From: a virus
Lineage: Duplodnaviria; Caudoviricetes
Reading direction: 5' to 3' (one strand)
DNA length: 59,545 nt
Virus record (IMG/VR): IMGVR_UViG_3300045612_000175
Span: 1-59,545 of that record
The notes beneath the pieces were generated by a model. It ran no database searches, was not told the DNA's origin, and was given only the letters and a program-made list of their open reading frames with translations. Below, piece after piece: positions 8,266 to 56,283 of this stretch. The stretch's first letter is position 1. Each line of letters begins with the position of its first letter. A program made the translations under genes and the position numbers.

Positions 8266-8269
8266 CCAC

Positions 8270-8315
8270 AAAGAGAAATGCCCCCGAGCATCTGAGATGC
8301 CGGGGGCTTTCTTTT
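8270..8315. terminator. Bidirectional intrinsic terminator
   Basis: aagagaaat GCCCCCG-a-GCATC tga GATGC-CGGGGGC tttctttt, between convergent operons. Confidence 0.8.
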
Positions 8316-9036: not shown

Positions 9037-9042
9037 GGGGCC

Positions 9043-9048
9043 ATTATA
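9043..9048 (-). promoter_or_regulatory. -10 box for leaderless thyX transcript
   Basis: TATAAT exactly 6 nt before the ATG; no SD. Confidence 0.55.
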
Positions 9049-9655
9049 CAGAGAGGGAGTGCCTCATCGCACGCTTGGCCTTCTCTAGCATGCTCTTGAT
9101 GATCTGCCAGTCAAGGCCAAGGTCTTCGGCGATCTCTTGATAGCTGTAGCCATCTGCACGCATGATGAGGACTTGGCGAAGGTCTGGGCTTAATGCAGAA
9201 AGTGCACGTGTCATTTTTTCAGACATCGGCTCGGGGCCATCAATAAGCGTCGCTGGGTCCATGGCAGCGGTCATGCTGCCAGACATAGATGGAATGCCGA
9301 CAGACGACACGTAGTCGTCGATGCTGTCCATATCTTCTGAGAGTGAGCGCTCTTCTAGGCTGTATATTTTTATGTATCTGTTTCTGCGACCTTCATCTCG
9401 AACAAGGTTGCTTGCAATTGTGTAGAGCCATGCATTAAAATAAAAAGTGCCGTCTCTGATTCCGGGCAAGCTAGCAATTGCTCTTGCCATTGTTTGCTGC
9501 ACTATCGCTTCAGTAGCACTTCTGTCTCCGGTAAGCTTGAATACGTGCCTCATAAGGCCGGGCCTGAGGCGCTCGGAAAGGACACCAAACGCAGCCATGT
9601 CTCCAAGGCGTATTCTTTCAAGAAGTGCTTTCGTTTCTTCAGAAGAACTAGTCAT
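9044..9655 (-). CDS. ECF-type RNA polymerase sigma factor
   Basis: GDMAAF, FNAWLYTIASN (region 2); LSPDLRQVLIMRADGYSYQEIAEDLG (region 4 HTH). Confidence 0.9.
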   Translation of the reverse strand: MTSSSEETKALLERIRLGDMAAFGVLSERLRPGLMRHVFKLTGDRSATEAIVQQTMARAIASLPGIRDGTFYFNAWLYTIASNLVRDEGRRNRYIKIYSLEERSLSEDMDSIDDYVSSVGIPSMSGSMTAAMDPATLIDGPEPMSEKMTRALSALSPDLRQVLIMRADGYSYQEIAEDLGLDWQIIKSMLEKAKRAMRHSLSV

Positions 9656-9842
9656 GGATATTAGACCTATTGCTTTGCTGACTTGGCTTTTTCATGTTGG
9701 TGTCTCCGAGGCAGGGATTCAAAAGCTTATTCAGCTTCGTATTCAATATACAAAAACGGACGCACGCTGGGATGGCATGCATCTTGACAACAGGCTCCAG
9801 TTTGCGCGCTGGCTGTATCTGACTGGCAAGATCTCAGGCTGA
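9654..9842 (+). CDS. Small hypothetical protein (RLQFARWLYLTGKI motif)
   Basis: 62 aa. The C-terminal motif resembles small proteins I associate with Chloroflexota (from memory, unverified). Confidence 0.55.
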   Translation: MDIRPIALLTWLFHVGVSEAGIQKLIQLRIQYTKTDARWDGMHLDNRLQFARWLYLTGKISG

Positions 9843-9859
9843 GAGGCTACACTTGGGCC

Positions 9860-12800: not shown

Positions 12801-12868
12801 AGGATAGCCTGCTGCTGTCCCAAGCATGGGAGCCAGACGCGGGGCTTGACATGGAGGCTGGATCCTAG
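9860..12868 (+). CDS. dnaE: DNA polymerase III alpha subunit (family C) with intact PHP domain
   Basis: HLHTHSEYSLLDG, AITDHG, GCE, QDSH, RGSVGGSLVAY, PDIDLDF, KFDLLGL, YGFNQAHA, C-terminal OB fold. TACACT lies 6 nt before the ATG (possibly leaderless). Confidence 0.97.
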   Translation: MSNFVHLHTHSEYSLLDGLSKPRAMAERASALGQKAMAITDHGNMHGAIVFYDACHAAGIKPIIGCEVYTAEAGDKDAGHLILLAADSTGYRNLNQIVSQASLTNFYRKPRVSREMLASWREGIIVLSGCLRGDLAQAIINGGDPIEVARWYRDIFGDRYYIEVHDHGIPAQAIVKQAAVEIARTVRSRIVVAQDSHFVMKGDGQAHEMLLAVQTGGRLSDPGRFKFEGTGFHITSEAEMLETWPREWIEESGRIADRCDLKLELGKQVFPKTPGVGDDEQGTLRGLAYAGAQERYGSLAHKERLDYELETISRNGFTRYFLIVADICRYARSVGIRNSARGSVGGSLVAYCLGIVPVDPMRFGLSFERFLNDGRSPDIDLDFEDARRGEIIQYIAATYGHDKVAQIVTFSEIGGRTALRDVGRALGIGSAQIDVLAKSVPLGRRIEEALESPALKAIEGSDLMRYARRLEGTIRHAGKHAAGVVVADRPLVERATLMRDSAGVMPMVGIDMASAERAGLIKFDLLGLKTLSTVSRAVDLIEERHGPMEPSIDRIPEDETRVWEMLGRGDSVGVFQVESPGMRRVLKEMKPARVEHLQAAVALYRPGPMDSIKPYCERRHGREQATYLHPALEPVLRDTYGLVVYQEAIMQIANRVAGMTPYESDQFLGAVRKKNPEKLRIYEPKFKAGLEAAGLSREQIDKLWAEIVPFANYGFNQAHAAAYGWLAYQTAWLKAVWPQEYYTALLTQDSADPERMAIICHDARRLGVKIHGPSVNESLADFSVASGGGIRFGLAAIKYVGVAAREAIVAARAGGRFTSVEDFRGRVTKRAVNSRALESLAKAGAFDCLGNRRHVLAALGIEAKDMIARLSLEREVMGLAVSADPLAAWDFVALGRDTTLAEVGPLLDEELSPQCVVAGELMERRDITTKTGKPMAIMMLRDETATVRLSAFREAIGRSGHVLVPGKIIMALATPDRWQGEDSLLLSQAWEPDAGLDMEAGS

Positions 12869-20634: not shown

Positions 20635-21394
20635 GCCCGGCTACCAAGTAGGACGCATCCACTGGCTCATTGCACAGACACTGATGCTGGTGGAGGCCGG
20701 TGTGCTGGACCGTGTGGCAATTCAGATGCCACCACGGCATGGCAAAAGCGAGCTGGCCTCAGTGCGGTTTCCTGCTTGGTATTTGGGTCGGCACCCTGAT
20801 AAGCAGTTCGTTGCGGCGAGCCATACACAGGACCTTGCCGATGAGTTCTCGGGGAAAGCAAGAGATGTCGTCAAGAATGAAAGGTGGCCGTTTCAAAGTG
20901 TGAGGCTCGCCGGGAATGCGTGGGCAGTTCGGAGATGGAAAGTCGAGACTAGGCAGCAGCATCGGTGGGCTGACCTTGGTGGTGTGTATGTTCCTGTTGG
21001 CGTTGGTGGTGGCCTCACTGGCAAGGGTGCTGACATACTAAGTATCGACGACCCGGTCAAGGACTGGGTGCAGGCCGACAGCGAACTCATTCGCGAGAGC
21101 CACTGGTACTGGTATCAGTCTGTTGCAAGCACGCGGCTCATGCCGGGGGCGGCTTGCATCATGACACTTACACGGTGGCACCAAGATGACATTCTTGGGC
21201 GTGCACTCAAGGTTGCGTCTGAAATTGCAAATGCGGATCAGTGGTTTGAGATCAAGATGCCAGCCCTTAGTGAAACAAATTTTGTTCATGCAGATATAAA
21301 CGTGCCAGACAAGTTAGCAAATGAAGCAGGAATTGATGCAGGCCTTAAGGAGCCTGAGGTACTATTCAAGAAGCTATGGAGCCTATGCAAATGA
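20546..21394 (+). CDS. Terminase large subunit, ATPase half
   Basis: Walker A MPPRHGKS, Walker B SIDDPVKD, coupling motif TRWH. Confidence 0.9.
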   Translation: MKGLTAAQIREEAEKALARKNLLHFTTRTKPGYQVGRIHWLIAQTLMLVEAGVLDRVAIQMPPRHGKSELASVRFPAWYLGRHPDKQFVAASHTQDLADEFSGKARDVVKNERWPFQSVRLAGNAWAVRRWKVETRQQHRWADLGGVYVPVGVGGGLTGKGADILSIDDPVKDWVQADSELIRESHWYWYQSVASTRLMPGAACIMTLTRWHQDDILGRALKVASEIANADQWFEIKMPALSETNFVHADINVPDKLANEAGIDAGLKEPEVLFKKLWSLCK

Positions 21395-22212
21395 AGCTGT
21401 CAGTGGTGCTGCACGACAAGGGGCCTGCACTTGATCCGGTGAGATGGCCAGAAGAAGATATGGAGAGGCGCAAGGCCTCTAGCGTGGGGCGAGTGTGGCG
21501 CAGCCTTTATCAGCAGGATCCTACTGACATTGATGGCAACCTGTTCAAGGAAGTCTGGTGGCAAATCTATGAGACGCTGCCGAGCTTCGTGCGGGTGTGC
21601 CTTTATGTTGACAGTGCATACAAGGCTGGAGTGAGCAGCGACTATAGCGTGGGCGCACTATGGGGCAAGTGCTACAATGGCAATGCGTGGCTCATTGATG
21701 TGAGGCGCGCGAGGCTTGAGTTTCCTGAGCTGGTCGAGTTTGTCATCAGCATGCGAGAAAAGCATATGAAATATAAGCCACCAGTAATTGTTGAGGACAG
21801 GTCATCGGGTCAGGCCCTCGTGCCGATCTTGAGGAAGCGCGGGGTACTTGCCATGCCGTGGAAGCACAACATCAAGGGCCTTAGGTCAAGCGCATCGAAG
21901 ATTGCACGGATGGAGGCGATCACCCCGCTTGTGGAGGCCGGGCGTGCATGGATTCCGGCGCGAGCACCATGGCGAGACGACTGGCTGGCGGAGCATCGGG
22001 CCGTGCCGACCGGGGCGCATGACGACATGGTCGATACGACCGTCATGGCCCTCGATCACTTGCTCGGCACTGTGGCCCTTGAGGCCGGGCCGAGCCTCCC
22101 ATTTCGCGACAAAGATGTGCCTGTGCTTGCCCCTATGGCCGCCGTCAAGAGGAGGCGCGACAGCGAAGAGGACGAGGAGCTAGAACGATGGCGGCAGGCT
22201 GGGCTGCTCTAG
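21385..22212 (+). CDS. Terminase large subunit, RNase H-like nuclease half
   Basis: LYQQDP, VDSAYK..SDYS, VEDRSSG, SKIAR, HDDMVDT. Candidate starts at 21376, 21385 and 21391; the last overlaps the upstream stop as ATGA. Confidence 0.9.
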   Translation: MQMKLSVVLHDKGPALDPVRWPEEDMERRKASSVGRVWRSLYQQDPTDIDGNLFKEVWWQIYETLPSFVRVCLYVDSAYKAGVSSDYSVGALWGKCYNGNAWLIDVRRARLEFPELVEFVISMREKHMKYKPPVIVEDRSSGQALVPILRKRGVLAMPWKHNIKGLRSSASKIARMEAITPLVEAGRAWIPARAPWRDDWLAEHRAVPTGAHDDMVDTTVMALDHLLGTVALEAGPSLPFRDKDVPVLAPMAAVKRRRDSEEDEELERWRQAGLL

Positions 22213-39200: not shown

Positions 39201-39275
39201 TGGAGCCGAGAGTGGGAGTCGAACCCACGACTGGCGGTTTACAGGACCGCTGCTCTGCCACTGAGCTATCTCGGC
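39201..39275 (-). tRNA. tRNA-Thr(UGU), CCA encoded, C33
   Basis: Acceptor GCCGAGA/TCTCGGC; anticodon arm GCGGT-CCTGTAA-ACCGC; T loop TTCGACT. Confidence 0.88.
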
Positions 39276-39276
39276 G

Positions 39277-39348
39277 TGGCCCCCGTGGGACTCGAACCCA
39301 CAGCCCAAGGATTAAAAGTCCCTTGCTCTACCGTTGAGCTAGGGGGCC
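39277..39348 (-). tRNA. tRNA-Lys(UUU), no encoded CCA
   Basis: GGCCCCC/GGGGGCC; AGGGA-CTTTTAA-TCCTT. TGgTATCCT extended -10 lies 8 nt upstream. Confidence 0.92.
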
Positions 39349-39364
39349 GCATGAGGAGGATACC

Positions 39365-39931
39365 ATGGCATACTCGGGTGATGACGTGACCAAGCCAAGC
39401 TGGCATGCGAGTGTGCGGGTCGGTGGCTTCGACGACGAGTGGCTGAAGTGGGAGGGCGTGGATCGCGCACACATCTTGCACGAGATCGTGAACATCAACG
39501 ATGCGCCCTATGAGGTGCCAGTCGTAGACAAGAACTACGTGAATTGGTGGCCAAAGGGCTGGAGGCTGGGGCTTGTACGGCCCTCGTACTTGTGGACGCT
39601 CATTGCCATGAACGCACACAAGGGGCTGACTGTCAGGGCCGTTGATGATGACCTGACTGTCGTCACGAGGGCGACTGATCCGCTCCTTGTGTGGGATGCA
39701 GTGGCGTCATTTGCGGCGACTGTTGATGAGACCCTTGTGATCTACAGCAAGGGGCCTAAGCCCGTGAAAATCAGGCTCACCCCTGATCGCGATGTCATGG
39801 CCACGTGCTACGAGCTAGATTCCGTGACTGGTGCAGATGGCGACCCGCTCGATGGCGATGGCGAATGGCCCGAGGGGGTGGAGTGCGCGAAGCTCGCATG
39901 GGACTTGGCGTGGAAGAGGCGTGAGCTATGA
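39365..39931 (+). CDS. Hypothetical protein between the tRNA pairs
   Basis: GAGGAGG SD, 188 aa. Confidence 0.65.
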   Translation: MAYSGDDVTKPSWHASVRVGGFDDEWLKWEGVDRAHILHEIVNINDAPYEVPVVDKNYVNWWPKGWRLGLVRPSYLWTLIAMNAHKGLTVRAVDDDLTVVTRATDPLLVWDAVASFAATVDETLVIYSKGPKPVKIRLTPDRDVMATCYELDSVTGADGDPLDGDGEWPEGVECAKLAWDLAWKRREL

Positions 39932-39966
39932 GGACATAAGTCCGTAAGGACGTGAGGCGGCGCGCG

Positions 39967-40042
39967 TGGTGCCTCGGGCGCGGGTCGAACGCGCGACCGT
40001 CCGCTTAGAAGGCGGATGCTCTGTCCACTGAGCTACCGAGAC
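39967..40042 (-). tRNA. tRNA-Arg(UCU)
   Basis: GTCTCGG/CCGAGGC-ACCA; TCCGC-CTTCTAA-GCGGA. Confidence 0.92.
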
Positions 40043-40049
40043 GCGCCCA

Positions 40050-40125
40050 TGGTAGGCCCGGCGGGAATTGAACCCGCGGCCACTGACTTATAAGGTCAGT
40101 GCTCTCACCACTGAGCTACGGGCCG
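40050..40125 (-). tRNA. tRNA-Ile(UAU), C1.U72 mismatch
   Basis: CGGCCCG/CGGGCCT-ACCA; CTGAC-CTTATAA-GTCAG. Confidence 0.9.
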
Positions 40126-41255: not shown

Positions 41256-41299
41256 ATGTCCTCCGTTTCTACAAGTAAGGCTTATTGCGGAGGACACCA

Positions 41300-44200
41300 A
41301 TGACGTTTACATCACGAGGCTTCGGTATCAGAACCAATGCTGACGCACAGAAGGCGCGGCTTGATGAGCTTGCAAGGAGAGTAAACCTAGGGAAGCCTGA
41401 AGAGCAGGCCCCTACTGGCCCCACGGCCGCGGACTACAATGCAGTCGCAGGCCTTGTGCCTGAGGCATTCCCTGCTGGCTTCGAGCCACTGCCCGAGCGT
41501 CCAGTCGATCCAGAGCAGGCAGCCATTGATGCCGCAAGAGCCAGAGCATCGGCGTACCTGAGCGCGCCAGACAACGCTGCGATGCAGACCACAGACATTG
41601 GTGGCACGCAAGTCAGGTCATTGAGGCCGGGCATGACATGGAACTTCACGCCCGAAGAGGCAGCCTCGCGTATCGACACGTTCGAGTCCGCAATCAATGC
41701 AGGCGTGAACCTCACACCTGCCGAGCGCGAGGAGTACATGGCGGCACAGGCCACCCCCGGCGTGAACATTCGCAAGGGTGGCTGGGACACGGCAGGCAGG
41801 AACCTCTTTGTCGGCGCAACGGGAGGCGTGGCTGCCCCCATTGGCGGTGCCATGCGCTTCATTGGCGAGAATGCTGGCGTGCCGGGCATGGCAGAGAGCG
41901 GGGCAGCCATCGAGGAAAGCGCGGCTGGGCAACAGGCCCGCTTCAATCCGCCGACAAAGGAGCAGCTCGACAAGGCGACGGGCGTGCCTGAGCCGAAGCC
42001 AGAGTGGGGGGCGAACAGCCTGTTCCAAGTCAACACATGGACGGACGGGCGCATGCTTGACCCGAAGTGGTGGGAGGCCCTCGGCGCACAGAACTGGGTC
42101 AAGACGACAGGCATGCAGGGGCTTGGCTCATTTGCTGGAACTGCGCTTGTTACCGCGCCCCTTTCCATGGGGGCGAGCGCACTGCTTGAAGCGCCCATGC
42201 TTGTCGTTGGTGCGCGCTTTGGACTGAAGCCCGGTGTCATTCGAGGCAGCCTTGAGATTGCCGACAGGCTTGGCCTTGGTGGGGGCGATGTCGTTGACGC
42301 ACTCACAGAAGCAGCAACTGCATATTCAGATGCAAGACGTGAAGGCAAGTCTATAGACGAAGCAAACAGAATTGCCGGTCAAGTCAGTGCCATGAATGTG
42401 GCGACGAATGTTGCGCTTGGCTCTGCCGGTGAAGTTGCAGCCAAGCTCAAGGGTGCAGGCATGGCGGCACGGAAGCTCAACAATTTGCTGAGACGTAGCC
42501 CCGTGCCTGTTGAGACGCAGCTCGCGACCGCAGAAAGAATGGCATCAGAAGGACTCATTCAAAAAGTCATCCTTGATAAGGTCAAGTCTGCAATTATTGC
42601 AGGTGCAAGAGAGGGACTTCAAGAGGCGCAGCAAGGCAACATTCAGGACACGGCAAAGGACGACACGCCATGGGATGTCATGCGTGCGTACACGAGCGGC
42701 AAGTACACGGACGACATGCTCGCTGGCGCATTGCTTGGTGGGGGCAGCCGCTTTGTCGGATCAATGCGGACGATGGCAAGGCCAAGCGGTGCGCTCGGCA
42801 TCATGTCGCAGCCACAGAAGGCACAGATTGAATCTGTGATTGGCGACAATCCTGTATTCAAAAACCTCCCTGAAGAAAGCGCATCAAGACTTGAGGATCT
42901 GAAGAGTCGAGTATCTTCAGGACAAGTGTCTTTTGATGATGGAGTACGAGAGTTAGTTGACATTGCATTTGAATTGCCATCTGAACATTTTGATGCAATC
43001 AGACCAAAACTTGACATGCTTGAGGAGAGCGCTGCCGAAAGTGCGACTCAAGAAACAGGAGGTGGTGGGGGCGCACCTCCGACACCGCCACCTACAAAGA
43101 CGGGCGGAACACCAGTAGATCCAGAAGAGGAGCGCATCAGAAGGCTCATGGATCTAGATGATCCACTCAGGCCGGGGTCAAAACTTATAGATAGATATAG
43201 AAGTCTTGCAAGTCAGGCTCGTCAAGGTGTGCTTACAGCAGATCAACTAAGAAATGATTTGTTTGATCGTATTCAAGATGATAGCAATCTTGATGATGAA
43301 GGAGTTAGCGCTCTTACAGATGCATTGCAAAGTCTTGATATATCTGCTCCACAAAGTGAAGCAGTAGCAAATGCAGAAAGAATGTACGCTGCAAGAGATA
43401 GGGAAACAGAGGAAGTAATCACACCGGAACCTCCAACAAAAAGCTCGTCAAGCATAGCACCTAGTGCAGCTCAAACACCTAGTACTGCTAGGTTTACGAA
43501 GCCAGAACAGACTATTCCTACAGAGCAAGCGGATGCAGAAGTTCGCAAGGCAGTAGACGAATTCCTTGCACAGAATCCTGACATTAAAATATCTAGAGAT
43601 ATTATATACGATCAAAAGTATAAAGATTTTGTGCAAGAATTAACTAATAAATATAATTATACAAGTATATATGCACCTCCTGAGTATAATGAGTTTGCTC
43701 CATGGAAAGTTCCACAAGACTCTGCACGTATGGCTATATATAGTCAGCTAATTCAAGGAAGGCGCGCACAGCAAGCAGGATCACAGCAAGCGGCTACACG
43801 TATTATAACTACTCCGCAAGCTAGACAGAGGCTTGCAAATCTCGGAATGACAAATGAACAACTTGTACGCTATGTTCCTACTCCAAGCGGAAATAATGGA
43901 TCATATACTCTAGCCGACGTAACAAAAGCAGAGAGTCTAATGAATGCGGAGGGTTCCGTCGCGGGAGAGCCTGTTGCCGAACAGCCTGTTGCCAAGCCAC
44001 CGGCCGCCGAGCAGCTCGTCACCGAGCCACCGGCCGCCGAGCCACCGGCCGCCGAGCAGCCCGTCACCGAGCAGCCCGTCGCCGAGCGACCAGCCGCCCA
44101 ACGAGTCGTTAGGTTTGAAAATCCTTTTATTCAGAAAGCTTTTGAAGCTGCAAAAGAAAATGGACTTGTATCTGATGAAGATATCCTTGCGCTTTCTCCA

Positions 44201-47200
44201 ACAGGACAAGGAGGAGCTTATAAGGCGGCAGAACTAGACGCAGCTCTGAAGAAAAATGGACAGGCAGTAAAGAGTGGAAGATTATATTATGGAGATCCAG
44301 ATGCTATAGTAAAGCTTAAGGCTATTGCAAAGCCAGCCGCTGTTGCTGAGGCTCCTGCGACCGCCGCCGAGGAAGTCAAACCGCCAGCCGAACAGTCGCC
44401 TGCTGCCGAGCCTCCTGCGCCTCCTGCTGCCGAGCCTCCTGCGCCTCCTGCTCCTACCGTGCCTGCCGAAGATGGTCGTAGAAGAACACCAAGTGGAAGA
44501 ATCATAAGACCAGAAGCAGAAACATATGCTCGCACAGAGGGAGTGTCACTTCTTGAACTTGATCCATTTATTATCGGAACTGGAAGAAATGGAATTATAA
44601 GAAGAAGAGATGTTGTAGATGCTATTGAAGCTTATAAGACTGACAGACAAACAAGAGCCGCGAATCAAGAAAAGTTAAGCAAAATTCCGGGCATAGCAGA
44701 CGAAGAACTAGAAACATCGGGACAGACATTGGATTCGCCGGGAATAAGACAGGCAGTATTAAGTTCAATCTTAGAAAAGATAGCTAAGAATGATCCAAAT
44801 GATCCACCATATCAAGTTGCATTTTATAAAGGTCAAACAAGAAATAGAAATGGGATTGGTCTTGGCCCTAAATATGTTCCAGTTTTCATCGCAAAAGTTA
44901 GTAATACAAGTGTGGAAATAATAGAAATTCGCGCAGGTGCAAATCCAAAACAAACAATAACTCTTCCAAAAACATTTTTTAAAGACATATTTGTACCTAC
45001 AAATGAGCAACTACAAAGAATTCGTGCTGAAAATAAGATTAGAGCGAATAAAGGTCAAGTTTTATCTGACGAAAAAATAAATAATATAGAAAAACTTTTA
45101 AATGAGTTGAAAGAAAATTCTCTTTTATATAGTGATGACAATCAGATGATGGCAAGGTTTACAGAAGCAGAGCCATCAAACCCACAGCCAAGACCCGGAA
45201 AAGAAAATGTAGACGAAACTAAACAAGAAGTTGACTCTTCTGGAAAAGAAATTGGCTTTGGTCGATTTACATATGAAGATGAAAGTGGAAATATAACAAC
45301 ATCTAGATACTCAACAATAGATCAAGATTCTTGGAAGATAGTGGATGAGCTTGCAAGATGGTACGCTGCACGAGAGGCAGGAAGGCCTGAGCTTGCAATC
45401 GCATATGCAAAAACTATCCTTGGTCCAAGAGGAGAACTTGCAAGATACGTCGGGCAGCTCATTAGAATGTCAGATGTTATAGAAAAAATAAATCCAAAAT
45501 TTACTGCTTTCAGACCAGATTTTATACACTTTCGATTTAATGGTCAGCTAATACGCAACGCTTTGGCAATGAACATCGCAGACGTAAAAGGAATGATAGA
45601 AGATCTGGGATTAGATTCAGAAAAAAAGCAAGAAGTTCTTAAGCAATTTGAATTAGGATTTAGAGCAGCATCAAAAGAAGACAGTGAAGGTAAGCCTGAG
45701 CGTGTAAATCCAGAAGGAATAAGATCTAGGTATTGGACGACACAACTACAGTCTTTGTATAACAATGGAGTGGCGTGGTCAAGAACAGAATTTGGACCTA
45801 ACTCAAAATATGAAGTGCCTGAACTAATAGGAAGAAAGACAAGCGAAGGCACCGAAGGCACCGCCGAAACAAAATCATATGCTTCTGGTGGACTTACTTT
45901 TGCCGCAGAAGGAGGAAAAGACTACTGGGACAGAGAAGTAAGCAAGCACATAGATGAGGCAAGATTTAAGGAACTTGCTGGTGAACCTGCTGCAAAAAAT
46001 GGATATAAGTTTAACCAGATTCAAGATGTAGTCAAAAAGATTCAAGCAGAAGGCACTACTGTAAGACCATACGGTGACATACAAAAAGAAATAGCTGCCG
46101 AAAAGAAACCAGCCGCAGGTACTGAGACAGGCGCTCAGCCTACAGAGACGACAGGCGGGCCTCAGAGCGAACAGCCACCTGCTCGTCGTGCGCAAGTGCG
46201 TGCATCAAATGCACATCCAAAAAGAGAGATCCCAGATTCCGCGCGACAGACAAAGCAGCTCACAAAGCCAAAGAGCGGAAACGATATTGCTCCTATTGGC
46301 ATAATCAAGGGAGTGAATTCCATACTCAATGCAGGAGACATTGAGGGCGCAATGGTATACATGAGACTATTGTTTGGATCACTTTCAAACTTAAAATATC
46401 CTGATATTAAAGTTGATGGAAAGCCAGTCACATCTGCTGGATCGGTGTCAGATACTGACGTGGGAATAGGAAGTAATATGGCTCTTGCTCTTTGGGCAAA
46501 CATGACAGGAACTGGAGCAGAAGCAAACAAAACATTAATTAATAATTTCTTAGAAAGAATAAAGAAAGAATCTACAGGCGTTCCCGAGTACGCACGCATA
46601 AATAAAATTATTAATCAGACGATTAGTAGCCTGAGGGCGCTTACGTCTGGAAGTCTTTCAAGTCAGGATATTGCTAACGAGGTAATGCAAAAACAATATG
46701 GAGTAAATCCAGACAATCTTGCAACTCAAGAAAGCGCAAAAGCATTTGCAATAGCAAGAGTGAAAAAGGCTATTGCCGAACAACTGAATCATGCATTGCG
46801 TGCATCACTCACAGATAGACTCTTTGGTTCTAAGAAGGCTCAATCAGACAACTTGTGGAATGCAAGGCATAGATCGCAGGCAGCAGCCGTGGATCAAGCA
46901 GTGCAGGAGACAGTCGAAGCACCAGCCTCGGCAACCACTGAGGCAGGCGGAGCTGCGCCTACAGAAGCCAAAGCACCAGCGTCAGCAGCTCCGAGCGGCC
47001 AGACTACAGATGTGGCCCCGAGTGTTTCAGGCGGGGTTACTTTTGCTGCACCGGGAACCCAAGCGTACTGGGACAGAGAGGTAAGCAAGCACATAGATGA
47101 GGCAAGATTTAAGGAACTTGCTGGTGAGCCTGCTTACAAAAATGGATATACTTTCACTCAGCTTAAAGATGTAGTTGAAAAAATTAGATCGGAAGGCAAG

Positions 47201-50200
47201 GTAGTAAGAGAATCATCAGAAGTACAAAAAGAAATAGCTGCTGAAAAAAGAGCAGCAAAAGCAGCGGGAGCCACTGCAACAGGCAGCGCTGCACCAGCAG
47301 AAACACCAGCCACTGCACCAGCCACTGCACCAGCCGAAGCACCAGCCGAAGCACCAGCCGAAGCACCAGCCGAAGCACCAAAAGAACTTGATGCAAGTGG
47401 CATACAAAATATACCAGATGAAGTTCAAAGAAATATAAATGTTTATAATGGATTGTTAAAATTATTAACAGATAATAATCCTTTAATTGTATCAGCAGCA
47501 AAACAAGGAATGAACGACGCTCTTATAGCTATAAATTCAGGTGGATATACTGTTGATTTTGCTACAGGGAAAATTATAGAATCTGCCTCAAGCTTGGGAG
47601 CTATGAGAGATGTATTAAATACTATTACTGGTACTGGTACTGGTACTGGTACTGGTACTGGTACTGGTACTGGTACTGGTACTGGTACTGGTACTGGTAC
47701 TGGTACTGGTACTGGTACTGGTACTGGTACTGGTACTGGTACTGGTACTGGTACTCAAGCACAAGCGCCAGTAATTAATAAATCTAATCTAATGTCATCA
47801 GTAAGAAATCTTGTAACTACAGGCCAATCAAATGATATTATAAATCACTTGGGTGGAATGAATCTGATTGATGCTGGAAGAACTATTAAAGCAGCACTTT
47901 CACGCACCTCTAAAAAATCACCAGAAGGAGTGCGTGACAGACAATTTATTATTGATAACATAGATAAAATTTTTACTGATCCAGCAAAGGCTCAAGTTGT
48001 TAGAAATATGGTGGAGGGCAAAACAACTACAGTTACTTTACCTACCACATCAGTCAATCCACCAGCACCACCAGTCAATCCACCAGCACCACCAGTCAAT
48101 CCTCCCGCACCACCAGTCAATCCTCCCGCACCTCCAGTCAATCCTCCCGCACCACCAGTCAATCCTCCCGCACCACCAGTCAATCCTCCCGCACCACCCG
48201 CACCACCCGCACCTCCAGTCAATCCACCCGCACCTCAGCCTGTTCCTCCGACGCCACCACCAGCAGGTCCCACTCAAACTTGGTGGGAAACACTAGAGGC
48301 ATGGCGCTATGCAAACGCATTGTCAAATGTTTTCCAGCTTGCTACAGAAGGGCTAAATGCAACAGTACGAGTAGCTGAGCTTTTCACACTTAATCCAATA
48401 GAAGGCGCGGTTCAAGGCGTGTTCAAGAAATTTGGAGCACAGGGTGAGCAGACCGCATCAGTAGGCGCATCGCTTGCTGGCGCCACAGGAATACTAGATG
48501 GAATTGCCAACGGCGCAGTAAATGGATTCAAAGCATTTACTGATCCAAGCGCAGTACTTCGTGGTCCAAATACAGACATCAAGCTTCTCACTCAAAGCGA
48601 GATTGCAAAAAATAATAGGCTGGCAAAATATGGACTTACTGGCCTAGAATTAATTGGCACAAGACCAAGACTTGCACTCGACATGCTTGCTCAAGGTATT
48701 GCAAGAAGCGTTGCGCTATCAACAAGAGCAGCGCTTGATGCACAGAATTCAGTGGGAGACATTTCATCTCAGGCTGGACAAGCCAAGATGAAGGAGTCGA
48801 AGTTTATTCTTGGGCAGGCGATGGCATGGCCATCTGTCATGAAAGACAGTGAACAGATCATGTCAGAAGCTGAGTATATTAAGATGCTCGGCAATGTTTC
48901 AAGCCAGCCAAATCTTTTGAATGATATTCGCGCAGCACAATACAATGGATCTCAGGCCTTTGCTTCAGATGCTGACATATACAATGCAGCAAAGAAGGCA
49001 TACGAAATTGAAGACGAGGCAAGAGGAATATCAAACCAAGGAACAAGGCAGCCGAGACTCTTTGGAAGGCTGTTCGCCGGAAATCCTGTGGCAAAAAATC
49101 TTGTGCTGTTCACGAATTGGCTTGCACGAGAATCATACCGAGGCCTGTCATACACTCCGGGCGTTGGCGCTGGCCTCATGTTGTATGATGTACAAACAGG
49201 CAAATACAAAGACATTGAAGGTGGAGCAAGCAAATGGATTGGAACACCTACTGACCCAAGGACCGAGAGGCTGTCGAAGCGTGTAGCCATGCAGATCATG
49301 GGGAGCATGGTTCTTGCAGGAGGCTTTGCGCTCAGAGCAATGGGCCGTATGAATGGCGATGGCCCGGAGGAGCCAGAAGAAAGAAGTGCGTGGCTTGCTG
49401 AAGGCAACATTCCATATGCACTTACTTGGGACAATCCAGACGGCACCAAGGCACAGTTCAAGCCGTCCGGTGTGCTTGGCGCGCTCATGTATCCGCTTGT
49501 TGCAGGAGCCATCGTTCACGACACCATCATGGGGTCAGAGTATCAAAGCCCATCAAAGGTGCGAGACGTACTTGACAAAGTTAGAAGACTATCTGTTCAG
49601 TACGCAGAGTGGATGTATGATAATAGCACTCTAAGAAACTATAATGAAATCATGAATGCGCTCCAAGCTAATAACTATGGAGAGCTAATGAACAGAATCA
49701 TTGCGAATCAAGTTCTCTCGTATGTACCAGCGTCTGGCCTGATGCGAGGAATCAATGCAGTGTCAGACAAGTACATGAGAAATCCAGACGATGTTCTCGA
49801 TTATATTTCAAACTCGCTGCCGACTGACAAGGATGCAATTGAGAAGAACCAGCAAGGAGGAAGACCGCAACTAAACATGGCAGTCAGGCCAAAGCGAGAT
49901 GAGTTTGGAAGGCCAGTACAAAATCAGTACTACGCAGAGGACACTGCGGGCAAAGTGGCAGGCCTGTTTAGGAGACAGTTCGTTTCCACTACAAGAGAGG
50001 GAAGTCAGAAAGACCAGCTCGGAAGGCCGACGTACCAATACGCTGGAGCAAAGACGAAGGCAGAATCTGTACGCATCGGAGGAGCAGTCAACGCTGTGGA
50101 GAAATATCTTAGGAATCCTCAGCTTGAGCGAGAACCTACCGCAGAGGAATATAGAATCGCAGCCAGATATTACGGCGGCAAAAATGTCCTCTGGCAGGAT

Positions 50201-50260
50201 GCACGGCAGCGTGGTGTCGAGCAAGAAAAGCTTGATCGAAAGATGTATGAGAGGAAATAA
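41300..50260 (+). CDS. Giant internal virion / DNA-ejection protein (~2986 aa)
   Basis: EGLQEAQQ...GALLGG membrane-associated motif; C-terminal [20 protein letters not shown] motif like T7-type internal virion protein D homologues; low-complexity linkers. GGAGG SD before ATG 41300. Confidence 0.7.
45884..46110 (+). repeat. Internal domain duplication (second copy ~47025..47250)
   Basis: [27 protein letters not shown] occurs twice, with a near-identical nucleotide core. Confidence 0.9.
47627..47755 (+). repeat. Perfect (ACTGGT) x21.5 microsatellite encoding a (Thr-Gly)n tract
   Basis: Read directly from the sequence. Confidence 0.95.
48052..48235 (+). repeat. 21-bp repeat encoding (VNPPAPP)n
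   Basis: Read directly from the sequence. Confidence 0.9.
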
Positions 50261-50262
50261 AA

Positions 50263-52710
50263 ATGGCATCAGGAATTAACACAGTACAGCTAGATAGATC
50301 AGTTGTTCAGAATGCCGCTGAAATTCTCTCATTGCTTTCTGGTAAAAACACGATATATCCATCGAGGATTATTACTGAGTCAAATACTGTACCGCCCGGT
50401 GGATCTAGAGTTGATTACTTTTCGTCTAAGTATTTTACAGACAATCCAGAAAATAATGCAAAAATTAATAATGAAAGAAATATGCTGTTCATTCCAGCAT
50501 GGAAAACAATAGTTGGAATATACGAATCAGAAATTGCAAGAGAGAGCACAAGCTGGTATTCTTCTCAAGAGAATAAAGACAAAGAAAGGGCGCAAAGCCT
50601 GCAAAGAATAAATAATCAACTTATATACATACGCAATAATATAATGCAAAATAATGAATATGAACGAAGAGAAAGTTCTGATTCATCAACTCCTCTTTAC
50701 ACAATTAAAGATATTGATTCAAAAACAGATATGGAAAAATTTACCATATTTAACAATGGTGTAAAGCAGTTTTCAGCAGAAAATCCAGAGATGATGCCGG
50801 GATACAAGGCGTCTCCAACAGCACAGCCAAGTCCGACAGGGGTGGTAAGTCCAGCAGCGACGCCCGTGCCTCCACCTCTTGAGCCTTCTATTAATGCCGC
50901 GCCCGGATCAGCAACGGTGGCACCAGCCACATCAGTCGCTGCTGGCGGGACACCTGCTGGATTTTCAAAGGGGGCCAGCGCCACTACAGAGTCAAACGAT
51001 GATGAAAAATATATAGATAGTTTGGTATCTTCTTATAATAATAAGATGCCTGATTTGAAAAAAATAAATCCAGTTACTGCTGAAGACATTTCTAATGAAG
51101 TTAGTCAACTCAGAATTCCTTATAATTCAGCAAAAATAAAATTTGATAACGCATCAAAATCAGTAGCTAAATATGAAGCGGCACCCGGTGGAGCTGTAGG
51201 GGACAACTATGAAGCGGCAGTAAAAATTCAAGATGCTGCTCGCGAAAAGCTTGCTGAGTCAGGTCAAAAATATGCCGCGGCTCTTGTCAAAATAGACACA
51301 GCACTTAGAAATAATGGAATCGTACCATCATATGATAAAGTAACTGTTGATGGAACATTTTTTACTGTAACGAAAAATGCATATACTGGAAAAGCAATTT
51401 CCATGTCTCCAGTAAATGTTGCTCTAACTCCAGATCAGGCTCAGGCAGCAAAAGACACGGCAGTAAGGCAAGGAATTGTAAGTGAAGATACGGCTGTAAA
51501 TACAGCGCCTGCACCTGAGGCATCGAGCGTGTCGGTGCCACCTGCCGTAGCAAGAGTAGGCTCGGCACCAGCACCTGCATCAGCACCTGCACCTTATACT
51601 CCATCCCCGACAGGCATGGTCATGCCAGCTCCTGCAATGGCTGGGGCACCGAGTGTGCCAGCCCCAGTCACGAGTGCGACTGGCGGGGTATCAGGTGTCG
51701 TTGGCCTTCGAGGCACGATGACACAATCAGGTGGGTCGCCGGGCAAGCCGAACATGGTGTGGGACGGGACATGGGGGCCGGGCGGCGTAAAGAACATGGT
51801 GCAGCAAGGCACGACAGGCGGGTCAGCCGGAAGCGTGCAGATGCATCCGCTTAAGAGCCAATACGATCCAAAGACAGGAAATCTCTTTGTCATGAATGAA
51901 ATGACAGGAGAGTTCAATGTAATGAACACTGGATTAGGGAATGTATCTGCTGAAATTAAAGATGTTCATTACTATCCAGATGGATCTGTTTCTGCTGTAT
52001 ATACAGATGGATCAATGAAGGAACTAAAGACCGCAGATCCAAGTGTGCTGGCAAGACAGGCCGCAAAGGATGAGGCCGCACAGCAAAACGATCTTATGCA
52101 GGCGGAGGTCTACGCACAAAATGCAAGGAAGTCGCGATTCGAGAATGCAGTGAAAGACCTCGTCGCAAGTGGCAAGTACACTCCAGAGCAAGGGGCAATC
52201 TTGCTCGGAGACTTCAGTGCATATTTTAACTATCAACAAAATGCAAGAAAAGCCTACGAGGATGCAAGGGCCACGCGCATTGCAGAAAAAGAACGTGCAG
52301 TAGCGCAGGCACAGAAATTGCAGGGTGGCTATAACCTGAGCCGCATGCTCTTTGGTGGGAATAATCCACAGAATATGGCGGCAATCAATCAAATGGTGGA
52401 GGCGCTACCCGGAGACAAGAGCGAGTCTGTGGGGGCAAGACAATTTAGAAGCATGTGGGGAACACAAGATGGTGTTGCTAATCCACTAGACTACAAGGAT
52501 CCGGGAGCATGGACGCAGCCTGAATATACTCCTCCAGACAAGTCAATCATTGAAGAATGGATGAAACAAAATCCAAGCATATTCGACAAACTTGGAAGCA
52601 CTAATGCTGCGCAGCCGCAGCCAGTCGCGCCTCAGCCTGTGCCTGCTGTAATCACAAGGCCAGAGGGGTTCGGTCTGTACCCAGAAGCACTCGGACGTTT
52701 CGGTCAGTAG
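50263..52710 (+). CDS. Putative internal virion / ejection protein (815 aa)
   Basis: Helical and low-complexity, AT-rich 5' half, coupled to the giant gene. Confidence 0.55.
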   Translation: MASGINTVQLDRSVVQNAAEILSLLSGKNTIYPSRIITESNTVPPGGSRVDYFSSKYFTDNPENNAKINNERNMLFIPAWKTIVGIYESEIARESTSWYSSQENKDKERAQSLQRINNQLIYIRNNIMQNNEYERRESSDSSTPLYTIKDIDSKTDMEKFTIFNNGVKQFSAENPEMMPGYKASPTAQPSPTGVVSPAATPVPPPLEPSINAAPGSATVAPATSVAAGGTPAGFSKGASATTESNDDEKYIDSLVSSYNNKMPDLKKINPVTAEDISNEVSQLRIPYNSAKIKFDNASKSVAKYEAAPGGAVGDNYEAAVKIQDAAREKLAESGQKYAAALVKIDTALRNNGIVPSYDKVTVDGTFFTVTKNAYTGKAISMSPVNVALTPDQAQAAKDTAVRQGIVSEDTAVNTAPAPEASSVSVPPAVARVGSAPAPASAPAPYTPSPTGMVMPAPAMAGAPSVPAPVTSATGGVSGVVGLRGTMTQSGGSPGKPNMVWDGTWGPGGVKNMVQQGTTGGSAGSVQMHPLKSQYDPKTGNLFVMNEMTGEFNVMNTGLGNVSAEIKDVHYYPDGSVSAVYTDGSMKELKTADPSVLARQAAKDEAAQQNDLMQAEVYAQNARKSRFENAVKDLVASGKYTPEQGAILLGDFSAYFNYQQNARKAYEDARATRIAEKERAVAQAQKLQGGYNLSRMLFGGNNPQNMAAINQMVEALPGDKSESVGARQFRSMWGTQDGVANPLDYKDPGAWTQPEYTPPDKSIIEEWMKQNPSIFDKLGSTNAAQPQPVAPQPVPAVITRPEGFGLYPEALGRFGQ

Positions 52711-52746
52711 AAATATATTTTAGAAAATAATTTAGGGAGCAATTCA

Positions 52747-54441
52747 ATGCCTCAGGATAAATCAAACAAGGACGACGCAGTAGCAATATCTCCATACAGG
52801 CAATACAGTGACGGTTCTGCAAAAACAGTAACTGTCCCAGCAGGAGACCAGAAGACTGGAACTGTTACTTACACTACAGGAGGCACAAAGAAAGAAGCCG
52901 AAAAGTCAGGAGGCCAAGGCGGCACAGCAGACTCGCCCAATACCGCAGCGAATACAGCCGCGAGAAACGCAGCTCTAGGGAATCCGCCATCCGGTGGCGG
53001 TGATAAAGCAACTTCCGCTGCTGCTGCCCCCGCTGCTGCTGCTGCCCCATCACACATCATGCAACTTAGCGGCTTGGCATACTTGAGTAGCCCAGAAGAA
53101 TTTAATGCATATGCAAATACACTTGATTCATGGAGCAGATATCTCAGTATTGTAAACAGTCAGAGCCAATATGTCATGACTGTAGACAAGATCGGCCCAG
53201 ATGGAATACCTACATTCAAGCAGATGCTTGGTCCAGACAATAAGCCAATTCCTCAGAGCCAGTACGCACTCAATAAGCAGCAAATTGATAGACTAAAAAA
53301 TCAAGACATAATTGATATGGCGAATACAAGTGGTAAAATTAAAGATCCAGAGACTGGCAAATGGATTCAGACTCCAGACGCAATTGTAAAAATAGCACAA
53401 AGCGATCAATACAAGCAACAGGCAGAACTTACAAAGCAGGAGGCTCTTAAGACTATTGCTGAGACCGCATATATTTCTGGAGCACAGACTGATCTGACAA
53501 GAAATCAATCAAATCTTGTTACTGCACAGACAACATACACAAATGAGCAGCAAAAGGAGCTTGCACGACGCTACGAACTCGACAGGCAAAACGCACTGGC
53601 ACAGGCAGTGGCCGACCCAAGGCGCAGTGTCGAGGCTGCCATGATGATGCAGCTCTACGGAGCCAATCAAGGCGGCATGCCAGTCGGCACAAGCGGCTAC
53701 TCGGCGCAAGGCATGGCACAGCAGGCCCCTCAGTACACGCAGCAGCCTCCTCAATACATGCCAGCGCAGGGGTTTGCTGGCGGCACACAGGCTCAAGTCG
53801 CGCAGCCAGTCAATAGCGGGCCGCCTGCACAGGCACCGGCATGGGCGTGGGCTGGCGGTCAAAATCAGGGCGAAATGGTTCGCGCTGCTGTCATGCCTGA
53901 AGGCCAAGACGGCATGTATCGTGCTGCTGTACTTCCAGACAACTATTACTCGATGCGGGAACAATTATCTAGACAAGAGGACCTCGTTCGACAAAATGAA
54001 GCCAATCAAATGCGTGGTGCTGTGCCTGAAGGCATGCAAGCTCCAAGCGCATGGCCATCGCCAACAGGACAGGTCTCAAGTACTGATGCCGCAAATGGAG
54101 TCGGCGGCTATAGTGCGGGGCAGCTCGCGCAGAATAGGCAAAACACCGCATATGTTGTAAATCCAAATTTGGCTGCGGCTTTGCAGGGCCAGTATGTGCC
54201 GGGTGCAGGCAACAAGAGTGGCAGCTACGGTCAAGTCACAACCATTGCGGGTGCTGCACCACGAGGAGGCAACTACGGCAAGATCAACCCAGTCTCGTAC
54301 AGAAACATGGACGAGGACACTCGCGCAAGATATGGCAGCCTAGCTCTGGCCAATCAAGGCATGAGCGAGCAGGATCTTGCAAAGAGGCAGCGAGTTGCAT
54401 TGCCGGGCGCAAGTGCAAGTGGTGGTGGCACGAGGCTCTAG
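52747..54441 (+). CDS. Putative internal virion / ejection (pilot-like) protein (564 aa)
   Basis: Gln/Ala/Gly-rich with coiled-coil QQAELTKQEALKTIAET. Confidence 0.55.
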   Translation: MPQDKSNKDDAVAISPYRQYSDGSAKTVTVPAGDQKTGTVTYTTGGTKKEAEKSGGQGGTADSPNTAANTAARNAALGNPPSGGGDKATSAAAAPAAAAAPSHIMQLSGLAYLSSPEEFNAYANTLDSWSRYLSIVNSQSQYVMTVDKIGPDGIPTFKQMLGPDNKPIPQSQYALNKQQIDRLKNQDIIDMANTSGKIKDPETGKWIQTPDAIVKIAQSDQYKQQAELTKQEALKTIAETAYISGAQTDLTRNQSNLVTAQTTYTNEQQKELARRYELDRQNALAQAVADPRRSVEAAMMMQLYGANQGGMPVGTSGYSAQGMAQQAPQYTQQPPQYMPAQGFAGGTQAQVAQPVNSGPPAQAPAWAWAGGQNQGEMVRAAVMPEGQDGMYRAAVLPDNYYSMREQLSRQEDLVRQNEANQMRGAVPEGMQAPSAWPSPTGQVSSTDAANGVGGYSAGQLAQNRQNTAYVVNPNLAAALQGQYVPGAGNKSGSYGQVTTIAGAAPRGGNYGKINPVSYRNMDEDTRARYGSLALANQGMSEQDLAKRQRVALPGASASGGGTRL

Positions 54442-54477
54442 CGTTTCTACATCTGAATCACTCATAAGAGGAGAGAC

Positions 54478-55311
54478 ATGAACGACGAAATTGCGGCCCC
54501 AGAAATTAGCACCGACGATCTTCCGATTGCAGCCTATGCATCGGAGGGGCTTGAAGACTCCCGCGTCTGGTCTCCAGACGACGAGGCCATAGAGCTTGTC
54601 GATGCACCTGCACGCGAAGAACCAAAGATTGACGCCGACACAATCAGGGCGCAGGCCATTGAAGAATATAAGGCGGGGCAGCAGCTTGAGATTGAGAGGC
54701 TGCGTGCGGAAGCACAGTTGAGACTTCAGCAGGAAGCACTTGCCGCAGAAGAAGAAGAAGAGTTTGATCTTATTGAGCGTGCAGATTCTGGAGACTTGGA
54801 GGCGCAAGAGGCATTCTATCTCAAGAATTTTGAACGTGCAAAAGAGAGGCTCACGCAAAAGAAGACGCAGGCCGCACTTGAGCCTGAGCGCGCCGCAGCT
54901 CGCAACGAAATCAGGCGACAGCTTTGGGAAGAATACTCCAAGTCATTTGGTGTTGAGCCAGACGACAAGGATGTTCTTAGCATCCCCGCAGATCAAGGGA
55001 TGCGTGGCATCAACGCTGCACTCATTATGCGTACACAAGATGACGCAATTCTTGATGCAGCCAGAAAGAATCCTGCAATGCAGAAGTGGATTAAGGAGGA
55101 AGTAGCAAAAGCAACACAGGCCGCTGGAGCAAGAGCAATGGCAAGAGCACTTGGAGCAGAGGAAGCACCAAGAGCAGACGCAGCAGCTCAGACGGGTGGC
55201 AGAACAATTACAAGCGATGAGCTTGATAGGGCACTCATGCAGAATCCAGATGATAGCGAACTCTATAAGCTTTGGGTAAAGCGAGAGAGAGCGGCTGGTA
55301 GATACTGGTAA
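54478..55311 (+). CDS. Capsid scaffolding protein
   Basis: Acidic helical protein directly upstream of the capsid gene. Confidence 0.65.
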   Translation: MNDEIAAPEISTDDLPIAAYASEGLEDSRVWSPDDEAIELVDAPAREEPKIDADTIRAQAIEEYKAGQQLEIERLRAEAQLRLQQEALAAEEEEEFDLIERADSGDLEAQEAFYLKNFERAKERLTQKKTQAALEPERAAARNEIRRQLWEEYSKSFGVEPDDKDVLSIPADQGMRGINAALIMRTQDDAILDAARKNPAMQKWIKEEVAKATQAAGARAMARALGAEEAPRADAAAQTGGRTITSDELDRALMQNPDDSELYKLWVKRERAAGRYW

Positions 55312-55338: not shown

Positions 55339-56283
55339 ATGGTTGCACCGATTTCCGCAGCCGAGCTGGTGCAGATGGAGCCGAAACTCATCTTGCCCGC
55401 TCGCTTTACGCTGCAAGCTAAGACTCTGGCGACTCAGCTCTTTCACAAGGAGAGCTTGCCTGACAAGAAGGGTCGAGTCCTGAATCAGCCGAAGTATGGC
55501 GAGTTTGAGGCCTTTGACGCGACGGAAGGCATTGAGGTCGATAACCCGCAGAAGCTCAGCACCTCGAACTGGGTGGTTGAGCCGACTGAGATTGTGGCGC
55601 AGTTCTTGCTTACCGACGTGGCTGCCCGTGTCGGCGGCGAGAATCACCTTGCGAATGCGGGCCGTATCCTTGGGGATGCGATGGCCAAGAAGGTGGACAA
55701 GAAGGGCCTTTCGATTTTCAAGGATGGCGACAGCAAGGGGAACCTCTTTGGTGTCACGCACAGCCTCGGTACCGTGGGTGGCACGGGTAGCCCGACGACG
55801 ACCATCACCGTGCCGCATGTGAATGCTGCGGTGGCGCGACTCGAAGGCAATGCCGAGCCGACGCCCAAGCCGATCCGCATGATCTTGCGTGCCGAGCAGA
55901 TGCGCAAGCTCCTGAATGCTGTTGCGCCTGTGTCTGGCACGAACGCCATCTACGGTGGCATCAGCGAAGAGGTCTTGAAGCAGTACTTGAAGCACGACTT
56001 TAGGCTCTTCGGCCTTGAGGGTGGCTTCATCACTCCGAACCTTGATCGCTTCAGCACGACAAGCACGCCGGTCATTGGCGATGCGAACACCTATGCGGTC
56101 GGGGCAGTATTCAGCCCTGAGAGCATCTGGTATGTTCCGGTTGATGCCATGACGGTCGAGAAGGAGCGGCGCATGAAGGCTCGCTCGTGGCTCTATCAGG
56201 CGAGCCATACCTTTGGCTTTGGCGTCTATCAGGAGAAGTGGGGCGTCAAGATGTCGTTTGAGGCCGCAGATCCGACCTCGTAA
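55339..56283 (+). CDS. Major capsid protein (HK97-fold, 314 aa)
   Basis: QPKYG...ATEG E-loop, LTD.A, GRILGDAMAKKVD spine helix, VEKER...FGFGVYQEKWGV; strong SD and biased codons. Confidence 0.82.
   Translation: MVAPISAAELVQMEPKLILPARFTLQAKTLATQLFHKESLPDKKGRVLNQPKYGEFEAFDATEGIEVDNPQKLSTSNWVVEPTEIVAQFLLTDVAARVGGENHLANAGRILGDAMAKKVDKKGLSIFKDGDSKGNLFGVTHSLGTVGGTGSPTTTITVPHVNAAVARLEGNAEPTPKPIRMILRAEQMRKLLNAVAPVSGTNAIYGGISEEVLKQYLKHDFRLFGLEGGFITPNLDRFSTTSTPVIGDANTYAVGAVFSPESIWYVPVDAMTVEKERRMKARSWLYQASHTFGFGVYQEKWGVKMSFEAADPTS

Follow-up and report, generated by a model that had tools for sequence, protein, structure and literature searches.

The peripheral subunit-binding domain (PSBD; Pfam family PF02817, E3_binding) is a single-purpose docking module of the pyruvate, 2-oxoglutarate and branched-chain 2-oxoacid dehydrogenase complexes. 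It folds from ~35-45 residues into two helices that enclose a structured loop. Binding of E1 and E3 is its only established function, known from E2 chains, where the domain is flanked by the lipoyl domain(s) on one side and the acyltransferase core on the other; it is also found in E3BP. Canonical PSBDs grip acidic patches of E3 and E1 through a basic face on helix 1 and the loop, and helix-1 and loop residues have specific roles in this contact. Here we report this known domain in a new setting, a giant open reading frame (ORF) that encodes a probable injected phage protein. The ORF (41285..50260, plus strand) is carried by an uncultured phage contig, the IMG/VR virus record IMGVR_UViG_3300045612_000175, which was taken whole as the window of this analysis (59,545 bases, linear; completeness ~77% by CheckV). 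A full-text literature search returned no paper linking the PSBD, PF02817 or the E3-binding domain to phage virion proteins.

On the phage side, the N4 proteins gp50, gp51 and gp52 are described as an ejection cassette. Within it, gp50, the giant virion RNA polymerase, is pictured as a string of beads, loosely folded while in the capsid and refolding in the cell, its N-terminal domain acting with the membrane complex and its C-terminal domain being regulatory (PMC13434306). The T7 protein gp16 is likewise described as passing a narrow portal channel and then refolding, having been partially unfolded (PMC8954989). Polyvalent proteins form a further point of comparison, being presented as very large, multidomain proteins whose genes neighbour virion genes and that are proposed to be injected with the DNA (Iyer et al. 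2017, PMC5512222); the terms ‘E3-binding’ and ‘dehydrogenase’ are absent from the main text of that paper.

The giant protein resembles N4 gp50 in being a single chain of ~3,000-3,500 residues whose gene lies upstream of structural ORFs and of an N4-gp56-like capsid gene. In contrast to gp50, it gave no match to an RNA polymerase or to any other enzymatic family. The two ORFs that follow it encode 815 and 564 aa, compared with 644 and 150 aa in N4, with no detected similarity and no hydrophobic helices. A likeness to polyvalent proteins comes from the ESM Atlas neighbours of the two ends. Those of the N-terminal domain are viral clusters, one with LPD22 on 12% of its members, and those of the C-terminal domain are viral hypothetical proteins, with LPD38 on 74% of the members in a cluster; we treat both as leads only. 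Unlike polyvalent proteins, the giant ORF has no LPD or enzymatic Pfam match at E<=10, and PHROGs and NCBIfam likewise gave no enzymatic, polymerase or LPD family, although very diverged polymerases can slip past such profiles. Finally, the protein departs from E2 chains in lacking a lipoyl or acyltransferase domain and in placing its PSBD-like domains in a gene of the phage structural module. No Biotin_lipoyl or 2-oxoacid_dh match was found in it, either as a whole (E<=10) or in 29 slices, whereas the control, AceF, shows all three E2 domains.

The evidence for a PSBD centers on one segment, copy 3 (44498..44644, plus strand; aa 1072-1120), the third of three that a sequence-only reading of the window had proposed as PSBD-like. 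In a six-frame scan of the window, the only match to PF02817 was copy 3, with 23.2 bits (24.9 with neighbours) and E 6.4e-6. When the giant protein was cut into 29 overlapping slices of 200 aa, PF02817 was the sole Pfam signal outside low complexity. The match covers nt 44510-44614. A 57-aa piece holding copy 3 scored 25.0 bits (E 2.2e-5), a 303-aa piece 30.0 bits (E 5.9e-7), a 200-aa slice 21.9 bits (E 2.1e-4) and the whole protein 15.2 bits (E 0.025). These values straddle the gathering cut-off of the family, 23.7 bits, because the amount of low-complexity context scored along with the domain varies; scored as a domain, copy 3 reaches it.

Other comparisons lead to the same family. All six PDB matches obtained with copy 3 using phmmer are PSBD chains of E2 proteins (E 0.05-0.6), and 17 identities in ~40 aligned pairs were counted in the phmmer alignment to a solved PSBD. 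Copy 3 retains the YAR...GV...GTGRNG.I...DV signature that it shares with the PSBDs of E2 chains and E3BP, and differs from E2 PSBDs by an insertion of 4-5 residues between helix 1 and the GTG loop. At the equivalent spot in the orthologue P0055, a metagenomic protein described below, PF02817 is also the top family (14.4 bits, E 0.045). The PSBD of Escherichia coli AceF, used as a yardstick, scores 60.4 bits against the same profile. Since copy 3 reaches 15-30 bits by context where AceF reaches 60.4, we take it to be a real but strongly diverged PSBD, in agreement with the sequence-only reading, which had recognized the PSBD pattern in this segment. A tblastn search with copy 3 gave no match in phage records, and a word-based search for it among longer proteins found nothing.

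The same reading had viewed two upstream segments, copy 1 (43799..43939, plus strand; aa 839-885) and copy 2 (44120..44269, plus strand; aa 946-995), as diverged PSBD copies and had suggested a profile search against PF02817 as a check. That search recovered copy 3, while neither copy 1 nor copy 2 matched the profile at E<=10. We then modelled aa 836-1152 with AlphaFold2 from a two-row alignment (the window protein and the orthologue P0055). Copy 1 was predicted with a pLDDT of 81-94 and copy 3 with 80-89, their helices following in the same order; copy 2 reached 46-63 and the linkers stayed below 50. When this model was searched against the PDB with Foldseek, nothing reached E<=0.001. PSBD structures occupied ranks 1-5 and 12 of the first 20 rows (E 0.2-2.9), and VIA-align puts the PSBD chains on model residues 1-60, which correspond to copy 1, each chain being shown at its best place only. 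PSBD chains fit the copy 1 model with an rmsd of 1.3-1.4 Å, versus 3.8-7.0 Å for nucleic-acid-binding chains. Thus, copy 1 is predicted to adopt the PSBD fold that E2 chains and E3BP possess, and it stands as a PSBD-like minidomain by predicted fold only. The PSBD identity of copy 2, a small helical segment, is unsupported; its PDB sequence matches include no PSBD.

Comparison of the copies with one another added little. MAFFT sets all three in register with the AceF PSBD. Using hhalign, the probabilities among the copies and the duplicated module described below did not exceed 6.6%, the value at which copies 1 and 3 are in register over 38 columns. A small PSBD profile, built from AceF and the two copy 3 variants, detects copy 3 alone. 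All alignments that Foldseek made to predicted structures of viral proteins had an rmsd >5 Å, mostly 12-45 Å. A PDB profile search with the three-copy region was discarded, as it was drawn off by linker composition to a histone tail match.

We next consider whether these domains could dock E3 or E1 in the canonical way. The AceF PSBD core has nine basic (K+R) and three acidic (D+E) residues, a net charge of +6. Copy 3 has eight and nine (pI 5.3), giving a net charge of ~0; copy 2 has five and seven (pI 4.7), and copy 1 five and three (pI 9.7), a net charge of +2. Opposite the R, K and K of helix 1 in the solved PSBD, copy 3 has E, T and E, in line with the earlier remark that the helix-1 arginines are only partly kept. 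Copies 3 and 1 differ from E2 PSBDs in the loss of the basic helix-1 and loop surface, an established trait of the domain, and they also lack the E2-type placement between lipoyl domain(s) and acyltransferase core or in E3BP. Because copy 3 is near neutral where AceF is at +6, and because its helix-1 basic residues are replaced, canonical E3/E1 docking is disfavoured. The loss of charge tells against docking in its canonical form, while leaving docking in general unaffected. We also predicted a complex of copy 3 (53 aa, two-row alignment) with two stand-in E3 chains (Swiss-Prot DLDH1_GEOSE). It scored 0.00 versus a mark of 0.32, a result that counts neither for nor against binding; the controls were not folded.

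The three copies are set among low-complexity linkers. Linker 1 (43940..44110; aa 886-942) consists of AEQPV/AEPPA repeats, is rich in Ala, Pro and Glu over aa 893-934 and shows 20 gapped positions against P0055; linker 2 (44318..44494; aa 1012-1070) is rich in Ala, Pro and Glu, with 17 residues inserted in P0055; and linker 3 (47252..47416; aa 1990-2044) is built of AEAP repeats. All three are on the plus strand. They are followed on the same strand by a perfect (Thr-Gly) x21 repeat (47626..47755; TACTGG, period 6, 21.7 copies, 100% matches), in whose place the relatives have a mixed Ser/Thr/Asp stretch, and by a PVNPPAP repeat linker of ~9 copies (48051..48234), the length of which is variable among relatives. 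Copies 1 and 3 thus share with the PSBDs of E2 chains a position between Ala/Pro-rich linkers of E2-like composition. We searched aa 837-1989 against 1.84 billion representatives, a library in which the query's own cluster did not come up and from which near kin seem left out, and obtained 53 matches at E<=0.001, each with its best stretch on linker 1. Twenty of these proteins were scanned. Extensin-type low complexity was present in 18/20, beside Ig, SH3, dockerin or collagen domains, and E2 domains in 0/20. The Ala/Pro/Glu linkers noted by the sequence-only reading are therefore real; their likeness to E2 linkers such as those of AceF is compositional and generic.

A duplicated module, also proposed to be PSBD-like, occupies 45860..46093 (aa 1526-1603) and 47003..47236 (aa 1907-1984) on the plus strand. 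The two copies are 65% identical over 78 aa (E 2.6e-32), their DNA core is nearly identical, and the YWDREVSKH motif recurs at nt 45923 and 47066. While the duplication is clear, kinship to the PSBD found no backing. Pfam and the PDB give nothing below E 0.08, a PDB profile search returned only matches of E>=0.45, the AlphaFold2 model has a mean pLDDT of 56, and Foldseek against the PDB gave 0 matches.

All of these elements belong to a single protein. The open frame begins at a TTG codon (41285) and encodes 2,991 aa. Counted from the ATG at 41300 the protein has 2,986 aa, and this ATG matches the point where the orthologue starts (MTFTS..., aligned to aa 6). The peptides quoted in the sequence-only reading are all in frame in this ORF, at or within ~35 nt of where it had placed them. 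A conserved N-terminal domain (41300..43054; aa 6-590), delimited by identity to P0055, hydropathy and the GC content at third codon positions (GC3), contains moderately hydrophobic stretches at aa 174-193 and 279-314. A conserved basic C-terminal domain (48257..50257; aa 2325-2991; pI 9.1) has two hydrophobic stretches, aa 2667-2687 and 2725-2751. The central block between them (42905..48304; aa ~541-2340), delimited by GC3 and identity to P0055, is compositionally foreign and consists of small helical domains strung on low-complexity linkers. All three regions are on the plus strand. The giant protein contains no cysteine, nor do the next three ORFs (815, 564 and 277 aa; window 41285-55311), and histidine makes up only 0.3% of it.

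Relatives of the giant protein were found in one JGI metagenome protein cluster, homologous over the full length (P0055, 3,171 aa; 9 members). Relatives also fall in the clusters P0058 and P0062; P0062 has 3,205 aa, so length differs among them. Searching the C-terminal region among giant-length proteins gave this one cluster, and a word-based search with the C-terminal domain alone found nothing. The giant ORF had no match in 50,697 phage records (megablast and tblastn), a scan of viral contigs for it gave none, and metagenome scans with the giant protein and P0055 confirmed no locus. Identity to P0055 is 564/585 in the N-terminal domain and 643/667 in the C-terminal domain (96% at each end), compared with 41/47 in copy 1, 47/58 in copy 2, 31/49 in copy 3 and 226/405 in the region after copy 3. 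In places the central block falls to 28-58%, with indels in the linkers; this block evolves faster than both ends. Within copy 3, helix 1 is kept at 8/10 positions and the TGRNG...RDV part at 12/17, while the inserted loop is kept at 5/13. Such a pattern would be expected if helix 1 and the loop formed a functional surface.

The central block also stands apart in its codon usage. GC3 along the giant ORF is 0.55-0.75 over aa 1-540, mostly 0.07-0.35 over aa ~541-2340 and 0.4-0.55 at the end, with an overall value of 0.26 for the central block. There, AGA serves for 55/94 Arg, ATA for 49/102 Ile, AAA for 64/103 Lys and ACA for 57/131 Thr. In the replication genes, AGA, ATA and AAA account for 0-16% of the respective codons, and ACA for 26-39%, a smaller gap; the capsid gene (GC3 0.74) almost never uses any of the four. 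Just upstream of the giant ORF, on the minus strand, the contig carries four phage tRNA genes (39201..40125), Thr-TGT, Lys-TTT, Arg-TCT and Ile-TAT, which read exactly the codons favoured in the central block. Because GC3 drops and codon choice is biased toward the codons of the phage tRNAs, the PSBD-bearing block was probably acquired from a low-GC source, the phage supplying matching tRNAs. The giant ORF neatly illustrates compositional mosaicism inside a single gene, with tRNAs of the phage itself to match.

Downstream of the giant ORF, on the plus strand, lie two ORFs of 815 and 564 aa (50263..54441). They are of low complexity, rich in Ala, Pro, Gly and Gln (GC3 0.36 and 0.45), and have no match in Pfam, PHROGs, NCBIfam or phage records; by position, they may be companions in an ejection cassette. 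They are followed by a Glu/Ala-rich, scaffold-like ORF of 277 aa and by the gene for the major capsid protein (55339..56283, plus strand). The capsid ORF matches TIGR04387, the N4-gp56 family, with 27.8 bits (E 1.5e-6), and phrog_267 (E 5.2e-5). Its product shares 26% identity with the protein annotated as the capsid of phage DSL-LC06 (E 4e-8); the portal and scaffold proteins of that phage show no likeness to the 564-aa and 277-aa ORFs.

The reading that we tentatively favour is that of a giant ejected beads-on-a-string protein, with re-purposed minidomains derived from a PSBD docking a partner other than E3 or E1. On gene context, with low-complexity ORFs, a scaffold-like ORF and an N4 gp56-like capsid gene directly downstream, a virion or injected protein is its most likely status. 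In our model, the giant protein would be carried inside the capsid and, like N4 gp50, be ejected into the host cell on infection. Its conserved ends, with their hydrophobic stretches, flank a fast-evolving central string, probably from a low-GC source, in which small helical domains are joined by flexible Pro/Ala/Glu, Thr-Gly and PVNPPAP linkers. Copy 3 descends from the PSBD of an E2 chain and copy 1 has the same predicted fold, the strongly basic face having been lost in both. The minidomains may act as tiny autonomous folders that pass the narrow tail channel and then refold. PDB titles of the matched PSBD entries mention ultrafast folding, which makes minidomains of this type plausible in a protein threaded through a tail. 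Copy 3 would probably dock its partner through its conserved, now acidic, helix 1. This fits the alternative that the sequence-only reading had itself offered, reuse of the fold for another partner, and it does so better than E3/E1 docking, given the lost basic residues.

Several observations weigh against this reading. In Pfam, PHROGs and NCBIfam, neither the giant ORF nor its neighbours match a family that would point to ejection, and Pfam and PHROGs give no RNA polymerase signal in the giant ORF. The capsid match to the N4-gp56 family falls short of the family's cut-off of 60 bits, the conservation argument draws on two distinct sequence variants only, and Pro-rich linkers are also typical of surface proteins, which would allow an external fibre. 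The last point leads to a rival in which the giant protein sits outside the particle or in the tail, as a head fibre, a decoration, an adhesin or a tape-measure-like ruler, and its domains and linkers are spacers without a specific partner. Linkers of this kind are indeed common in cell-surface proteins, as the extensin-type matches illustrate (18/20 scanned), and linker lengths vary between relatives. Nevertheless, it is the ends and not the centre that are conserved (96% at the C-terminus), unlike receptor-binding tips; conservation within copy 3 singles out helix 1; nearby genes matched no family of tail tubes, sheaths or fibres; and proline-rich linkers seem ill-suited to a helical tape measure. 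We consider such a structure unlikely. We hold a similarly low expectation for the proposal, first made in the sequence-only reading, that the PSBD copies still bind host E3 (dihydrolipoamide dehydrogenase) or E1 and so tether or sequester 2-oxoacid dehydrogenase subunits. The proposal draws on the only established PSBD function, on the signature and the 17/~40 identities that copy 3 keeps to a solved PSBD, on the conservation of its helix 1 between relatives, and on an Arg that copy 1 keeps four positions after a Pro, aligning with that of AceF. It is opposed by the change of the helix-1 basic residues to E, T and E in copy 3, by a net charge of ~0 versus +6 in AceF, and by the distance of copy 3 from the family (15-30 bits versus 60.4).

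Alternatively, the minidomains might be nucleic-acid binders, of the PDCD5/dsDNA_bind or the helix-extended-helix type, that would grip host DNA, or the end of the phage genome that goes in first, during entry. Helix 1 of copy 1 resembles the ILTPEAR.RL.N. motif of the PDCD5/MTH1615/SSO0352 family (PF01984, dsDNA_bind), and weak matches fall on this first helix: 1eij_A (E 0.2), PF01984 (13 bits, E 0.12; cut-off 26 bits) and NF003268 (15.5 bits, E 0.014; cut-off 98), all below significance. Unlike in the PDCD5 family, the match spans only 22-24 residues (E 0.014-0.4), and the rest of the longer helical bundle is missing. Moreover, copies 2 and 3, with pI values of 4.7 and 5.3, are acidic, and PSBD chains fit copy 1 more closely than nucleic-acid-binding chains do (1.3-1.4 Å versus 3.8-7.0 Å), so that we also judge nucleic-acid binding improbable. 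Very unlikely, and the least probable of the alternatives to our preferred reading of an ejected, PSBD-derived docking string, is a chance resemblance, in which short helix-loop-helix segments of a huge low-complexity protein mimic a PSBD without common descent. The match of copy 3 is the single one to PF02817 in six frames of 59.5 kb (E 6.4e-6), the same family comes out on top in an orthologue that differs at 18/49 positions, and the 6/6 PDB matches are to the same domain. In addition, of 200 block-shuffled copies of the giant protein, none reached 6 bits with the small PSBD profile.

We also looked for PSBDs elsewhere among phages. A tblastn search of the phage records with the AceF PSBD matched 31 records, and in 7/30 of those listed the match is an E2 gene by annotation (aceF, sucB, pdhC or acetyltransferase). 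Three of the matched ORFs were scanned with Pfam; two are complete E2 genes and one is an exoribonuclease of a Klebsiella phage, and no giant virion protein was among them. The complete E2 genes, with lipoyl, PSBD and catalytic domains, lie in OQ572413.1 (UNVERIFIED Pseudomonas phage Y12, 7656-8768) and MT835496.1 (UNVERIFIED Bacteriophage sp., 7240-9939), and could be either bacterial DNA or true auxiliary genes.

The remainder of the window encodes replication genes, including a DnaE-like DNA polymerase, a primase, a helicase and an exonuclease, along with a ribonucleotide reductase, a dCTP deaminase and an amidase-type endolysin. The replicative polymerase (9860-12868) is a DnaE-like Pol III alpha (phrog_405, E 1.6e-286), whose best matches in phage records, ~36-38% identical, are human-gut ‘Bacteriophage sp.’ contigs and Streptomyces phages. 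The large terminase is found in two overlapping ORFs: 20540-21394 matches the N-terminal half of phrog_38 (E 3.8e-52) and 21376-22212 its C-terminal half (E 7.8e-49). The gene may truly be split, or the break may stem from a frameshift or from an error in sequencing.

Finally, the PSBD may have been captured repeatedly by giant ejected proteins of unrelated phage lineages, the present high-GC phage with its N4-like capsid being one of them. The domain would let the protein latch, at entry, onto the megadalton 2-oxoacid dehydrogenase complexes of the host or onto free E3, and so anchor the ejectosome and genome or throttle central carbon metabolism. The interface would be a remodelled one, inverted in charge, and would evolve together with the host enzyme. 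We offer this broader scenario as speculation and think it distinctly unlikely. A PSBD descendant in a probable injected protein would represent either a new phage route to the central metabolism of the host, open from the very start of infection, or the reuse of one of the smallest, fastest-folding domains as a building block for proteins that thread the phage tail.

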